Shown piece after piece: positions 316 to 5,921 of a stretch of DNA of 5,921 nucleotides (within the stretch, counting starts at the first letter, position 1; each line of letters opens with the position of its first letter). The stretch is from Escherichia coli. GTDB lineage: Bacteria; Pseudomonadota; Gammaproteobacteria; Enterobacterales; Enterobacteriaceae. A program made the translations under genes and the position numbers. The notes under the pieces are model-generated. The model worked only from the letters and a program-made list of their open reading frames with translations. It was not told where the DNA came from and searched no databases. The stretch is taken from the NCBI RefSeq assembly GCF_003334355.1, contig NZ_QOWP01000068.1; one strand, 5' to 3'.

Positions 316-1368
316 TCATATTCTCGCCAAAACACTTTTTAATGCCTTTGCGAATTCATCCAGACTTATATTGTCAATTTTTTGCCCAACGACGACTGAC
401 TCCGAAACATCGGCCATTGCGGGCCATCGCGTTTTGTAATCAGCATAAATTGCAACAACGGGAGTATTATAGGCACTTGCCATATGTAATATTGAGGTGT
501 CAGGAGTTATTGCGATATAAGCATCTTTTATGATTGCTGCTGAACGTTTAATCGAGGGTGATAAGGATAAACGGTAGACATTATTATAACAATCCACTAA
601 TACCCTGGCTTTATCTTCCCCTTTTGGTCCATGAACGATCACTATTGGTATATCTGTTTCACTTTGAATTTTTGCTATTAGATTTTCTGCAATCGATAAT
701 GAAAATGTACGTTCCTGCGAGCTACCTTCTAAATTAAGCGCAATGTAAGATCCTAACGATCGCATTTCCTCGCGCACCTCATCGAGTACATCCTCACTTA
801 GTGGCAATTCATATATTGGCCTGACTGCTGGAAAACCCGCCTCACGCATCATAAATGCCCATGTCATGGGTACAGGAGCCCGGAGATTCTGATCCATCCG
901 GGACGCGTTCTTGCACAAAGGGGAGTAGCACTTCATGGTTAAACCAACAACCTGAAAATTCGTTTTTGCTTTTAACTGACTGATAAATATCATCGTTTTC
1001 AGGTTCTTTTTACGCATCGCCTCTATACAAAGATCCGGCGTACCGTATTGCTGTGTTATGTTCTTTGCTAAATCTTTTATTTCTTTTAATGTTGCGTGAT
1101 CCTGCATAGTCATTGTGACTAATGTTAATTTAGTCTTTTCAAGTTTAAGTGCATTAAACACTTCTAAATTAATTGTCGACGTAACAATTAAAAGATGCTT
1201 AATTTTATGCAATTCAAGCGCCCGAATAACAGGAAAGATGGCCATAGCATCGCCAATCTGGTCGGGAATATGGATAACAACAAACTCTGTTTTTTCAATA
1301 TTAAAATTATAAGCTTTATAATCGTAGTAACTAAATGCAATACGTCTCAACAATGATGCTAAAAACAT
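316..1368 (-). CDS. yeeL: Glycosyltransferase family 9 (ADP-heptose:LPS heptosyltransferase-like) protein; YeeL-like
   Basis: Single uninterrupted minus-strand frame ending in TGA at 318-316. The N-terminal region (VVIHIPDQIGDAMAIFPVIRAL) resembles the GT9 'GD' motif region, and the C-terminal region (ITPDTSILHMASAYNTPVVAIYADYKTRWP) resembles the conserved GT9 DSGpmHlAaA...P-x-valfG block. Start is uncertain: the ORF track opens at a TTG (1431); the first in-frame ATG is at 1368-1366, preceded by GGGAGG/GAGG, which gives 350 aa. Position next to shiA matches the yeeL locus. Confidence 0.75.
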   Translation of the reverse strand: MFLASLLRRIAFSYYDYKAYNFNIEKTEFVVIHIPDQIGDAMAIFPVIRALELHKIKHLLIVTSTINLEVFNALKLEKTKLTLVTMTMQDHATLKEIKDLAKNITQQYGTPDLCIEAMRKKNLKTMIFISQLKAKTNFQVVGLTMKCYSPLCKNASRMDQNLRAPVPMTWAFMMREAGFPAVRPIYELPLSEDVLDEVREEMRSLGSYIALNLEGSSQERTFSLSIAENLIAKIQSETDIPIVIVHGPKGEDKARVLVDCYNNVYRLSLSPSIKRSAAIIKDAYIAITPDTSILHMASAYNTPVVAIYADYKTRWPAMADVSESVVVGQKIDNISLDEFAKALKSVLARI

Positions 1369-3100: not shown

Positions 3101-4555
3101 ATGAATAATAAGGGCTCCGGTCTGACCCCAGCTCAGGCACTGGATAAACTCGACGCGCTGTATGAGCAATCTGTAGTCGCATTACGCAACGCCATTGGCA
3201 ACTATATTACAAGTGGCGAATTACCTGATGAAAACGCCCGCAAACAAGGTCTTTTTGTCTATCCATCACTGACCGTAACCTGGGACGGTAGCACAACCAA
3301 TCCCCCCAAAACGCGCGCATTTGGTCGCTTTACCCACGCAGGCAGCTACACCACCACGATTACTCGCCCTACTCTCTTTCGTTCGTATCTTAATGAACAA
3401 CTTACGTTGCTGTATCAGGATTATGGTGCGCATATCTCTGTGCAACCCTCGCAGCATGAAATCCCCTATCCTTATGTCATCGATGGCTCTGAATTGACAC
3501 TTGATCGCTCAATGAGCGCTGGGTTAACTCGCTACTTCCCGACAACAGAACTGGCGCAAATTGGCGATGAAACTGCAGACGGCATTTATCATCCAACTGA
3601 ATTCTCCCCGCTATCGCATTTTGATGCGCGCCGCGTCGATTTTTCCCTCGCACGGTTGCGCCATTATACCGGTACGCCAGTTGAACATTTTCAGCCGTTC
3701 GTCTTGTTTACCAACTACACACGTTATGTGGATGAATTCGTTCGTTGGGGATGCAGCCAGATCCTCGATCCTGATAGTCCCTACATTGCCCTTTCTTGTG
3801 CTGGCGGGAACTGGATCACCGCCGAAACCGAAGCGCCAGAAGAAGCCATTTCCGACCTTGCATGGAAAAAACACCAGATGCCAGCATGGCATTTAATTAC
3901 CGCCGATGGTCAGGGTATTACTCTGGTGAATATTGGCGTGGGACCGTCCAATGCTAAAACCATCTGCGATCATCTGGCAGTGCTACGCCCGGATGTCTGG
4001 TTGATGATTGGTCACTGTGGCGGATTACGTGAAAGTCAGGCCATTGGCGATTATGTACTTGCACACGCTTATTTACGCGATGACCACGTTCTTGATGCGG
4101 TTCTGCCGCCCGATATTCCTATTCCGAGCATTGCTGAAGTGCAACGTGCGCTTTATGACGCCACCAAGCTGGTGAGTGGCAGGCCCGGTGAGGAAGTCAA
4201 ACAGCGGCTACGTACAGGTACTGTGGTAACCACAGATGACAGGAACTGGGAATTACGTTACTCAGCTTCTGCACTTCGTTTTAACTTAAGCCGGGCCGTA
4301 GCAATTGATATGGAAAGTGCAACCATTGCCGCGCAAGGATATCGTTTCCGCGTGCCATACGGGACACTACTGTGTGTTTCAGATAAACCGTTGCATGGCG
4401 AGATTAAACTTCCCGGCCAGGCTAACCGTTTTTATGAAGGCGCTATTTCCGAACATCTGCAAATTGGCATTCGGGCGATCGATTTGCTGCGCGCAGAAGG
4501 CGACCGACTGCATTCGCGTAAATTACGAACCTTTAATGAGCCGCCGTTCCGATAA
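3101..4555 (+). CDS. amn: AMP nucleosidase (EC 3.2.2.4)
   Basis: 484-aa frame from ATG 3101 (MNNKGSGLTPAQALDKLDALYEQ...), preceded by GGAGA at 3091-3095. The C-terminal half shows nucleoside phosphorylase/hydrolase-fold features (VNIGVGPSNA, AIDMESATIAAQG). The 536-aa ORF in the track starts inside the shiA 3' end and is not accepted. Confidence 0.95.
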   Translation: MNNKGSGLTPAQALDKLDALYEQSVVALRNAIGNYITSGELPDENARKQGLFVYPSLTVTWDGSTTNPPKTRAFGRFTHAGSYTTTITRPTLFRSYLNEQLTLLYQDYGAHISVQPSQHEIPYPYVIDGSELTLDRSMSAGLTRYFPTTELAQIGDETADGIYHPTEFSPLSHFDARRVDFSLARLRHYTGTPVEHFQPFVLFTNYTRYVDEFVRWGCSQILDPDSPYIALSCAGGNWITAETEAPEEAISDLAWKKHQMPAWHLITADGQGITLVNIGVGPSNAKTICDHLAVLRPDVWLMIGHCGGLRESQAIGDYVLAHAYLRDDHVLDAVLPPDIPIPSIAEVQRALYDATKLVSGRPGEEVKQRLRTGTVVTTDDRNWELRYSASALRFNLSRAVAIDMESATIAAQGYRFRVPYGTLLCVSDKPLHGEIKLPGQANRFYEGAISEHLQIGIRAIDLLRAEGDRLHSRKLRTFNEPPFR

Positions 4556-4822
4556 TAAGTTCTGAACCTTCTCATCAGAAATAGATGTGAAGGATTAAGT
4601 AAGACATCTGGCAAATAGCCTGCAATCAACGCGGGCTGTTTGCTTCCTTGGGCAGATGCGAGTTTCATTATCGTCTTAATGATTTCCGCATATTAAAAGC
4701 ATGTATGCTTTCAAAATATAATTATAAAAAATCCCGCCAACAACATTAGTTTTTATAAAACAAAATATAAGATTATGGCTTTAGAATATTTTTATTTCTA
4801 ATAGACGAGATTTTTCCGGTTA

Positions 4823-4831
4823 TGATATAAT
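4823..4831 (+). promoter_or_regulatory. Candidate extended -10 promoter element for yeeN (TGATATAAT)
   Basis: TGnTATAAT at 4823-4831, about 66 nt upstream of the yeeN GTG, within a 342-bp AT-rich intergenic region. No convincing -35 at 17-bp spacing, which is compatible with an extended -10 promoter. Prediction from sequence only. Confidence 0.35.
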
Positions 4832-4897
4832 ATGCTGATTTAACACATGTTAACGATTTACCAGTAATGTAAATAAATTTTCGAGGAGATCATTCCA

Positions 4898-5614
4898 GTG
4901 GGACGTAAATGGGCCAATATTGTTGCTAAAAAAACGGCTAAAGACGGTGCAACGTCTAAAATTTATGCAAAATTCGGTGTAGAAATCTATGCTGCTGCTA
5001 AACAAGGTGAACCCGATCCAGAATTAAACACATCTTTAAAATTCGTTATTGAACGTGCAAAGCAGGCACAAGTTCCAAAGCACGTTATTGATAAAGCAAT
5101 TGATAAAGCCAAAGGCGGCGGAGATGAAACGTTCGTGCAGGGCCGTTATGAAGGCTTTGGTCCTAATGGCTCAATGATTATCGCCGAGACATTGACTTCA
5201 AATGTTAACCGTACGATTGCTAACGTTCGCACAATTTTCAATAAAAAAGGCGGCAATATCGGAGCGGCAGGTTCTGTCAGCTATATGTTTGACAATACGG
5301 GTGTGATTGTATTTAAAGGATCAGACCCTGACCATATTTTTGAAATTTTACTTGAAGCTGAAGTTGATGTTCGTGATGTGACTGAAGAAGAAGGTAACAT
5401 TGTTATTTATACCGAACCTACTGACCTTCATAAAGGAATCGCGGCTCTAAAAGCAGCTGGAATCACTGAGTTCTCAACAACAGAATTAGAAATGATTGCG
5501 CAATCTGAAGTTGAGCTTTCCCCAGAAGATTTAGAAATCTTTGAAGGGCTTGTTGATGCCCTTGAAGATGACGACGATGTACAAAAAGTTTATCATAACG
5601 TCGCAAATCTCTAA
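4898..5614 (+). CDS. yeeN: YebC/PmpR-family protein (DUF28), YeeN
   Basis: 238-aa ORF with GTG start at 4898 preceded by GAGGAG (4882-4887). The N-terminus [27 protein letters not shown] parallels the YebC-family N-terminus (GHSKWANIKHKK...), and the tail is acidic (EDDDDVQKV). Recognised as E. coli YeeN from memory. Confidence 0.93.
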
Positions 5615-5623
5615 TTATATTTT

Positions 5624-5660
5624 AAAGAAATCTGTCTTTACGGCAGATTTCTTTAATCTC
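5624..5660 (+). terminator. Candidate intrinsic terminator downstream of yeeN (AT-rich hairpin, possibly bidirectional)
   Basis: Inverted repeat AAAGAAATCTG (5624-5634) / CAGATTTCTTT (5644-5654), 11 bp perfect with a short loop, followed by TTTAATCTC. The stem is AT-rich so strength is uncertain. Begins 10 nt after the yeeN stop. Confidence 0.45.
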
Positions 5661-5844
5661 ATATAACCCTTATAAAAAATATAATGTTCAACTCGTCATA
5701 TTGATTATAAAAAATCCCCGTTCCCAGAGAAATAATATTTATTAAAATTCCAGTTCTTCTTTTTCTGATTACAGAAGGCAAAGTGGCAATTACGCATAGT
5801 TTCCCGATAAAGACGCGATAGCGACATCCCGCATAAGGCATTTT

Positions 5845-5867
5845 GGTAATGACTCCAACTTATTGAT
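5845..5867. repeat. IS1 terminal inverted repeat (IRR), 23 bp
   Basis: ggtaatgactccaacttattgat; differs from the repeat at 158-180 at a few positions, as expected for IS1 IRL versus IRR. Confidence 0.85.
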
Positions 5868-5921
5868 AGTGTTTTATGTTCAGATAATGCCCGATGACTT
5901 TGTCATGCAGCTCCACCGATT
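5860..5921 (-). CDS. insB: IS1 InsB (transposase C-terminal part), 3' fragment truncated by the window edge
   Basis: Minus-strand reading gives ...SVELHDKVIGHYLNIKHYQ followed by stop TAA (complement of 5862-5860), matching the InsB/InsAB' C-terminus from memory. Confidence 0.75.
   Translation of the reverse strand, partial: SVELHDKVIGHYLNIKHYQ

Follow-up and report, generated by a model that had tools for sequence, protein, structure and literature searches.

The stretch of DNA analysed here (the window: 5,921 nucleotides of contig NZ_QOWP01000068.1) belongs to the Escherichia coli chromosome and opens with the end of yeeJ. Our subject is yeeN, the RefSeq name of the open reading frame (ORF) at 4898-5614, whose GTG start and coordinates had been given correctly in a first-pass annotation made from the letters alone. 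The window protein differs from K-12 YeeN (b1983) by a single change, T142S. In K-12, the order 3' of yeeN is asnW, yeeO, asnU, cbl, nac and asnV. Neither the gene nor its activity is new; evidence for a Lactococcus origin and for a movable unit are the modest additions made here. The following features are referred to below:

4898-5614, plus strand: yeeN coding sequence, 238 aa, GTG start (ORF list)
4883-4888, plus strand: Shine-Dalgarno sequence GAGGAG, 9 nt 5' of the GTG, conserved in the alignment of enteric units
4802-4831, plus strand: sigma-70 promoter TAGACG-18-TATAAT with extended -10 (TG at 4823-4824), found in a scan with 10 of 12 matches plus the TG
4785-5715, plus strand: yeeN unit, with the same ends across Enterobacteriaceae and differing flanks (blastn, 14 other enteric loci)
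5622-5656, plus strand: hairpin of the intrinsic-terminator type with a 13-bp perfect stem and a U-rich 3' arm (inverted repeat, 100% complementary)
4721-4735: left copy of the 15-bp direct repeat ATTATAAAAAATCCC (exact repeat search)
5704-5718: right copy of ATTATAAAAAATCCC, overlapping the right end common to the units (TTGATTATAAAAA)
4556-4784: AT-rich amn-yeeN spacer left of the shared unit, specific to the Escherichia locus; homology elsewhere starts at ~4785
5845-5921, minus strand: end of an IS1 element with its inverted repeat from 5845 (ggtaatgactcc), matching IS1A/IS1B ends in thousands of records
5837-5844: 8-bp IS1 target-site duplication GGCATTTT
3101-4555: amn
1683-2999: shiA
316-1368, minus strand: yeeL, an intact family-9 glycosyltransferase gene (RefSeq annotation and ORF)

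YeeN is a YebC-family paralogue, as annotated. A Pfam search detected PF20772 (TACO1_YebC_N) at residues 3-73 (E = 2.9e-25) and PF01709 at residues 83-235 (E = 2.7e-51), which corresponds to the full-length TACO1/YebC architecture. TIGR01033 matches YeeN with 219.6 bits (cut-off 208.75) and NF009044 (PRK12378) with 352.1 bits (cut-off 196). The YebC equivalog model NF001030 yields 240.4 bits, under its cut-off of 243. For E. coli YebC the pattern is reversed (277.7 bits with NF009044, 375.3 bits with NF001030), and Streptococcus pyogenes YebC and the Lactococcus taiwanensis protein display the same NCBIfam model pattern as YeeN. A PDB sequence search returned as solved relatives 1kon (E. coli YebC, E = 3.8e-45), 4f3q (E = 5.9e-44), 1lfp (E = 9.7e-34), TACO1 9olf (E = 8e-27) and 5ekz (E = 2e-24), and no YeeN-ribosome structure. 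By these matches, YeeN is related to members with solved three-domain structures. Its N-terminus reads (V/M)GRKWANI, Y84 is located in the motif GRYEGFGPN, and K21 and K25 are present. E. coli YebC is 41% identical to YeeN (E = 5e-54), S. pyogenes YebC 78.9% over 237 residues and Bacillus subtilis YebC2 66% over a 132-residue N-terminal part.

Neighbour-joining trees (~240 columns, 200 bootstraps) united the YeeN-like proteins and B. subtilis YebC2 in one YebC2 clade (YebC_II) with 200/200 support. Outside this clade were E. coli YebC, B. subtilis YrbC, L. delbrueckii YebC and B. burgdorferi YebC. A published maximum-likelihood tree agrees with YeeN in the YebC2 clade (PMC11990639). The first-pass annotation had suspected an acquired paralogue and named a place in the ordinary YebC clade as the result that would speak against it; YeeN is found outside that clade, and this reading is unrefuted. 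A separate YebC2-like branch with the N-terminus MGRAYQNRK or MGRHFEVRA comprises proteins from Colwellia, some Bacilli and Erysipelotrichaceae (P0142, P0144, P0132, P0139, P0140, P0143). Its best model is also NF009044, yet its members are only ~44-47% identical to YeeN. Because of this identity and the separate branch, the 'YeeN' of marine Gammaproteobacteria probably represents another lineage than enteric YeeN.

Outside Enterobacteriaceae, the proteins nearest to enteric YeeN are, among the matches listed, those of Lactococcus. L. taiwanensis is 93% and L. kimchii 89% identical, the L. garvieae group 84-85%, L. termiticola 84% and dozens of Streptococcus species 76-79%. The YebC2-type protein of Colwellia, a marine gammaproteobacterium, has 44% identity to YeeN and branches elsewhere. 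In the neighbour-joining trees, the enteric YeeN copies are monophyletic (199/200) and are placed within Lactococcus. They group with L. taiwanensis and L. kimchii in 164 and with the Streptococcaceae in 192 of 200 bootstraps, and with Colwellia in none (0/200). A GTG start is present in 14/14 full-length enteric copies as well as in 3/3 Salmonella-labelled copies; the 5'-truncated copy L016 could not be scored. The third-position GC content (GC3) of enteric yeeN amounts to 0.22-0.39 within flanks of 0.45-0.59 GC. In contrast, all Streptococcaceae copies start with ATG and have a GC content like their flanks. In Lactococcus, the gene order yhbY-nadD-yqeK-rsfS-methyltransferase-tmcAL-yebC2 is conserved between species (L091, 284-5717; L013, 171-4717). 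There, yebC2 is the only gene of the YebC family in the genome; it closes a ribosome/tRNA-related cluster, a position in keeping with a role in translation in the lineage of the donor. On the enteric side, yebC2 is missing from Klebsiella pneumoniae, C. koseri, Serratia and Y. pestis (as read from Hong et al. Table S1). The identities, the tree, the contrast between GTG/GC3 and ATG/flank-like GC, the Lactococcus synteny and the patchy enteric distribution argue for transfer from a Lactococcus-like donor to the enterics. The acquisition of yeeN as a xenologue, received once by the enteric lineage from a Lactococcus-like member of the Streptococcaceae, is strongly supported. The searched literature contained no paper naming the yeeN donor. 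Thus, the suspicion of an acquired gene is borne out by a phylogeny that conflicts with the host tree, a donor-like composition, a patchy distribution and a variable context.

For base composition, 161 annotated K-12 genes drawn from six regions served as reference. As noted earlier, yeeN is AT-rich relative to its neighbours: its GC content is 40.2% compared with 50.9% for shiA and 50.4% for amn, and its raw third-position GC is 0.285 compared with 0.526 and 0.464, respectively. The spacers beside yeeN have a GC content of 0.316 (4556-4897) and 0.320 (5615-5845). With respect to the K-12 genes, the yeeN GC content corresponds to z = -2.95, and the GC content at synonymous third positions (GC3s) of 0.270 to z = -3.7, with 1/161 genes lower. 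The codon adaptation index (CAI), for which 29 ribosomal-protein and elongation-factor genes were used as reference, is average (0.431, z = +0.1), and the codons AGA, AGG, ATA, CGA and CGG do not occur in yeeN. By comparison, yebC has a GC content of 0.52 and a CAI of 0.71, which is in the range of ribosomal-protein genes. Low GC and GC3s combined with an average CAI therefore indicate a foreign base composition, yet the codons are not poor for E. coli. Prior compositional methods also flagged yeeN as foreign (PMC3661553 Table 1). The codon comparison proposed in the first-pass annotation is thus divided, with an atypical base composition and a host-typical CAI, and composition does not refute acquisition.

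Two other histories of the gene have to be weighed. If yeeN were an old vertical yebC paralogue that became AT-rich by local mutation bias or selection, its near-universal presence in E. coli and its host-typical CAI would be expected, and according to a published survey, YebC2 is conserved in the Firmicutes and the Gammaproteobacteria (PMC11990639). We consider this very unlikely, since YeeN shares 93% identity with the Lactococcus protein, compared with 41% for E. coli YebC and 44% for the YebC2 of a marine gammaproteobacterium, nests in the Streptococcaceae (192/200), and has no yebC2 counterpart in Klebsiella pneumoniae, C. koseri, Serratia and Yersinia. Furthermore, each enteric genus has yeeN at another place on the chromosome, and yeeN divergence does not go along with that of the host core genes. 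Contamination or a transfer from enterics to Lactococcus is countered by the genome-typical GC content and the conserved synteny of the Lactococcus copies. An even smaller probability, close to nil, is left for import by IS1, either within a composite transposon or by another IS-mediated route. The IS1 next to yeeN, which the first-pass annotation had taken as consistent with acquisition, does exist, and its end is located 230 bp past the yeeN stop codon. As a sign of acquisition it fails, as it is a recent, strain-specific insertion. Among 5426 complete E. coli genomes, 5396 carry the yeeN segment (at least 80% coverage of 4500-5921), and nearly all alignments end at the IS1 start. The exact yeeN-side IS1 junction was found in only 1/5426, strain PSS-12, to which the window is not identical throughout; in strain CP8-3_Sichuan, the IS1 has another position. 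Therefore, IS1 is uninformative on acquisition. In PSS-12, the 8-bp sequence GGCATTTT recurs past the far IS1 end, i.e. the target duplication is clean, and K-12 has a single copy at an undisturbed, empty site. A second strain contains an independent IS1 in the AT-rich yeeN-asnW spacer, 94 bp closer to yeeN; at least two strains thus have separate IS1 insertions there (window 5837-5921; L001, ~9215; L095, 6066-6840). A composite transposon calls for IS1 on both sides and shared junctions; the other side of yeeN has no IS1. IS1 as vehicle is refuted by these population data.

Instead, yeeN resides on a short unit of its own. In blastn comparisons with 14 other enteric loci, the E. coli segment is 84-89% identical, with left ends at 4784-4790 and right ends up to 5713-5715. 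The unit comprises ~0.9-1.1 kb, with an upstream part of ~112 bp in Escherichia and ~250-280 bp in most other genera and 40-100 bp downstream. For the longer units of other genera, the sequence at the left end is CTGGATTATCAC. The sigma-70 promoter at 4802-4831 has near-invariant hexamers in the alignment of enteric units, and a genomic SELEX study assigned TAGACG-18-TATAAT to yeeN as its constitutive RpoD promoter and gave it an H-NS mark (PMC3946193). In the literature, the amn-yeeN spacer is one of the 'promoter islands': it is bound by H-NS, and five methods flagged it as foreign (PMC3661553 Table 1). In a simple scan, promoter-like sites were not in excess there (7 found versus 5.3 expected), although the main promoter stood out clearly. 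The terminator hairpin folds with -18.3 kcal/mol (z = -8.3), and 0/200 shuffles were as good. A strict terminator scan did not report it due to too few G-C pairs. DNA homology to L. taiwanensis extends from window position 4889 to 5653 (9 bp 5' of the start to 39 bp past the stop) and therefore covers nearly all of the terminator hairpin. No known RNA family was found in the unit at any gathering score. In Citrobacter, Superficieibacter and Kluyvera, a hairpin GCAGGTTATTAACCTGC is located in the 5' untranslated region ~60-45 nt 5' of the GTG (L003-L015), with a few compensatory changes. As a regulatory element it was discarded: the consensus fold is weak (-3.2 kcal/mol), and the hairpin is broken in E. 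coli (window 4845-4865). The 15-bp repeat ATTATAAAAAATCCC that brackets yeeN might mark the scar of an insertion or the core of an attachment site. A query composed of the amn end and the post-repeat junction, designed for an empty E. coli site, yielded four apparent matches, all of them alignment overhangs; the one inspected retains yeeN.

The genes flanking yeeN differ in almost every enteric species sampled, also at the protein level. The unit occupies integration or island hot spots that vary with the species: in E. coli, yeeN is found between amn and asnW, and in another Escherichia species directly after icd in the e14 attachment region. Salmonella yeeN is located on the tRNA-leuX island beside yjhP (L097, 9106-9831; L090; L096). 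The defence cassette that comes after it there is exchangeable and consists of BREX, of dnd phosphorothioation, or of HsdR plus a McrA-like HNH protein. In Citrobacter species, yeeN lies next to ychF, btuE or arsC. Directly upstream of the unit, Citrobacter R56 contains a remnant of a P4-type tyrosine integrase, FPGDHNPRKPMSENTISKALRTM (tblastn, E = 5e-7), and a weaker integrase match is present upstream of the Superficieibacter unit (E = 1e-3). The integrase fragments (L007, 3609-3695; L003, 3610-3681) match residues 308-352 of the CP8-3 asnV-linked integrase pseudogene. Plasmid carriage was considered and rejected: the plasmid matches with more than 95% identity turned out to be chromosomes, or records of megabase size under a plasmid label. 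The same holds for phage or viral carriage, where the matches are Firmicutes genes at prophage edges and one Salmonella contig. Synonymous divergence (dS) of yeeN between E. coli and Citrobacter is 0.31-0.61, with ychF and pth at 1.03-1.30. For E. coli and the other Escherichia species, yeeN dS amounts to 0.52, with icd, rluE and nudJ at 0.24-0.39, and for E. coli and Salmonella yeeN dS is 0.48. Hence, yeeN divergence does not track the host tree. We read this as one entry of yeeN into the enteric pool and its retention by selection; after the entry, it may have moved laterally on integrative islands that have since decayed.

What YeeN does can be taken from published work. The statement of the first-pass annotation that YebC2 of Bacillus and mitochondrial TACO1 act at polyproline stalls is correct (PMC11990639, PMC12234827, PMC12724405). 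It regarded the role of yeeN as unresolved, which is outdated for the biochemical activity and still holds for the physiological role. Its remark that the sequence cannot say which activity YeeN has is valid for the sequence alone; the tree with B. subtilis YebC2 and S. pyogenes YebC together with published assays does provide the activity. Purified E. coli YeeN partly rescues a pentaproline stall (P5-FolA) in the PURE system, and the Y84A and M2 (basic-patch) mutants are inactive (PMC12234827). Tyr84 is needed for RNA binding, a requirement shown on E. coli YeeN (PMC12234827). A 2026 study reported 1.9-fold stimulation on Pro-Pro-Pro by YeeN, preferences for backbone-altered (non-canonical) amino acids that differ from those of YebC, and competition between YeeN and YebC (PMC13284719). 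Thus, relief of polyproline stalls in vitro is an established activity, with the assays performed on K-12 YeeN, i.e. with T142S as the difference from the window protein. Cryo-electron microscopy located TACO1 in the EF-Tu site/A-site region of the ribosome, where it contacts the A-site tRNA and prevents polyproline stalling (PMC12724405). By homology and judging from the published assays, YeeN would bind transiently near the A site/peptidyl-transferase centre via the basic patches of domains I and II and Tyr84, and might help peptide bonds to form at Pro-Pro and at further substrates of poor reactivity. It would share the site of YebC, with weaker action on polyproline and another substrate profile. 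Taken together, the explanation that we regard as likely is that YeeN is a YebC2-type factor acting on the ribosome rather than primarily on DNA, encoded by a Lactococcus-like xenologue to which IS1 is unrelated.

Two alternatives concern the protein itself. RefSeq and NCBIfam name YeeN a DNA-binding transcriptional regulator; if it were one of the YebC/PmpR type, its effect on translation would be secondary or an in-vitro artefact. Promoter binding has been reported for several YebC_I proteins (summarised in PMC11990639), and a list of proteins in nucleoid/H-NS-associated particles includes YeeN and YebC (PMC13106914). Nevertheless, all transcription reports concern the other clade, YebC_I (PMC11990639), and the PURE system consists of purified components with defined mRNAs, in which the Y84A and M2 point mutations abolish the effect (PMC12234827). 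Furthermore, S. pyogenes YebC, at 79% identity the closest characterised relative, crosslinks to rRNA, and its loss leads to more pausing at Pro-rich motifs. The literature searched contained no DNA-binding test or regulon report on YeeN. Hence, a primary role as regulator is improbable, and the database name is misleading: the yeeN product should be read as a YebC_II-type translation factor. We attach a similarly low probability to yeeN as a silenced, largely dispensable hitch-hiker, an H-NS-repressed remnant of a decayed island with no present role in E. coli. The H-NS-bound 'promoter island' upstream, the GTG start, the association with islands, and the weaker activity than YebC without a Salmonella growth phenotype (PMC12234827) would suit this idea. 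It is at odds with dN/dS values of 0.02-0.09 across enteric copies, which indicate purifying selection, with the lack of disrupted copies in the enteric sample, with the presence of yeeN in 5396/5426 E. coli genomes and with the conserved promoter hexamers and Shine-Dalgarno sequence. In addition, the yeeN transcript is regulated, the protein has been detected in proteomics, and the CAI is average, not poor.

Some points weigh against the combined explanation of a YebC2-type translation factor and a mobile Lactococcus-like xenologue. In the trees, four outgroups are represented by 133-residue fragments only (the outgroups besides E. coli YebC originate from Hong et al. S1 Data), and enterics group with L. 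taiwanensis alone in just 94/200 bootstraps. The homologue host range is a sample confined to the matches listed. Within 4 kb of the Citrobacter and Superficieibacter yeeN loci no tRNA gene is present, and the searches for a vehicle revealed no genuine plasmid or phage copy of the unit. Moreover, a constraint to low GC3 (~0.27) may depress yeeN dS, which weakens the case for recent lateral spread and leaves that for the Lactococcus origin unaffected. As to function, YebC is more active than YeeN in the PURE system, stable association of YeeN with the ribosome was not seen there, and Salmonella without yeeN grows normally with efp present or absent (PMC12234827), with no in-vivo phenotype of YeeN reported. 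By comparison, depletion of yebC is harmful in Salmonella lacking efp (PMC12234827). High YeeN concentrations inhibit translation (PMC13284719), and the ribosome-binding geometry assumed for YeeN is borrowed from TACO1.

In E. coli, three or four overlapping systems serve proline-rich sequences, namely elongation factor P (EF-P), EfpL, Uup and YebC, to which YeeN was added from outside. YeeN represents a natural experiment, in which a protein that is important in its native host is apparently dispensable in the recipient and yet kept in >99% of E. coli. This contrast between native host and recipient makes the question of what a second factor adds directly testable, and sharpens it: why is a second factor that is weaker and competes with the first retained by almost every E. 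coli? Tentatively, and with less than even confidence, we suggest that a single-entry Lactococcus gene might travel as a self-expressed ~1-kb unit between enteric genera, at integrase/tRNA island hot spots beside changing defence cassettes. It could be selected for widening the range of hard-to-translate sequences, e.g. those in foreign or island genes, as opposed to the polyproline motifs that EF-P and YebC deal with. The results are also relevant where YeeN and YebC are employed in engineered translation; the picture of the YebC family is unchanged by them.

Two further observations concern the remainder of the window. yeeL, a pseudogene in K-12, is intact here; its composition is also foreign (GC 0.384, GC3s 0.31), with a CAI of 0.25 near the bottom of the K-12 set (1/161 genes lower). 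Short ORFs on the minus strand, 4432-4668 (78 aa) and 5659-5841 (60 aa), are situated in or beside the AT-rich spacers. They are probably due to chance, since they are unannotated in RefSeq records of the locus.

Among known systems, S. pyogenes YebC (SPy_0316, YebC_II; Ignatov et al., 2025) resembles YeeN most. It belongs to the same clade, has the same best NCBIfam model with an identical score, and shares Tyr84 and basic residues with YeeN; both proteins were tested side by side on polyproline (PMC12234827). It differs in that it is the sole YebC-family protein of its host, native, with an ATG start, a host-typical GC content and clear mutant phenotypes. By contrast, the E. coli gene is the second of its family there and of foreign origin; it starts with GTG, the region upstream of it is bound by H-NS, and no phenotype is known. 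B. subtilis YebC2 (YeeI; Hong et al., 2025), from the same clade, resolves polyproline stalling independently of EF-P. Unlike YeeN, it matters in vivo, as seen from synthetic defects with efp and yfmR, and the YebC_I paralogue YrbC is inactive on the reporter. Compared with B. subtilis, the enteric roles look reversed: the YebC_I protein is the stronger one and redundant with EF-P, and YeeN is not.

E. coli YebC (b1864, YebC_I) has the same family and domain architecture as YeeN. Either protein rescues polyproline in vitro, and the two compete for a single site, but YebC belongs to the other clade, is native and has other preferences for non-canonical amino acids. Human and mouse TACO1, which act on the mitoribosome, are homologous to YeeN over the whole length and differ by their mitochondrial location and an N-terminal extension. 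A precedent for lateral transfer of a proline-stall factor is provided by horizontally transferred EF-P variants (PMC11388002). EF-P belongs to another protein family and acts at another ribosomal site, the E site.

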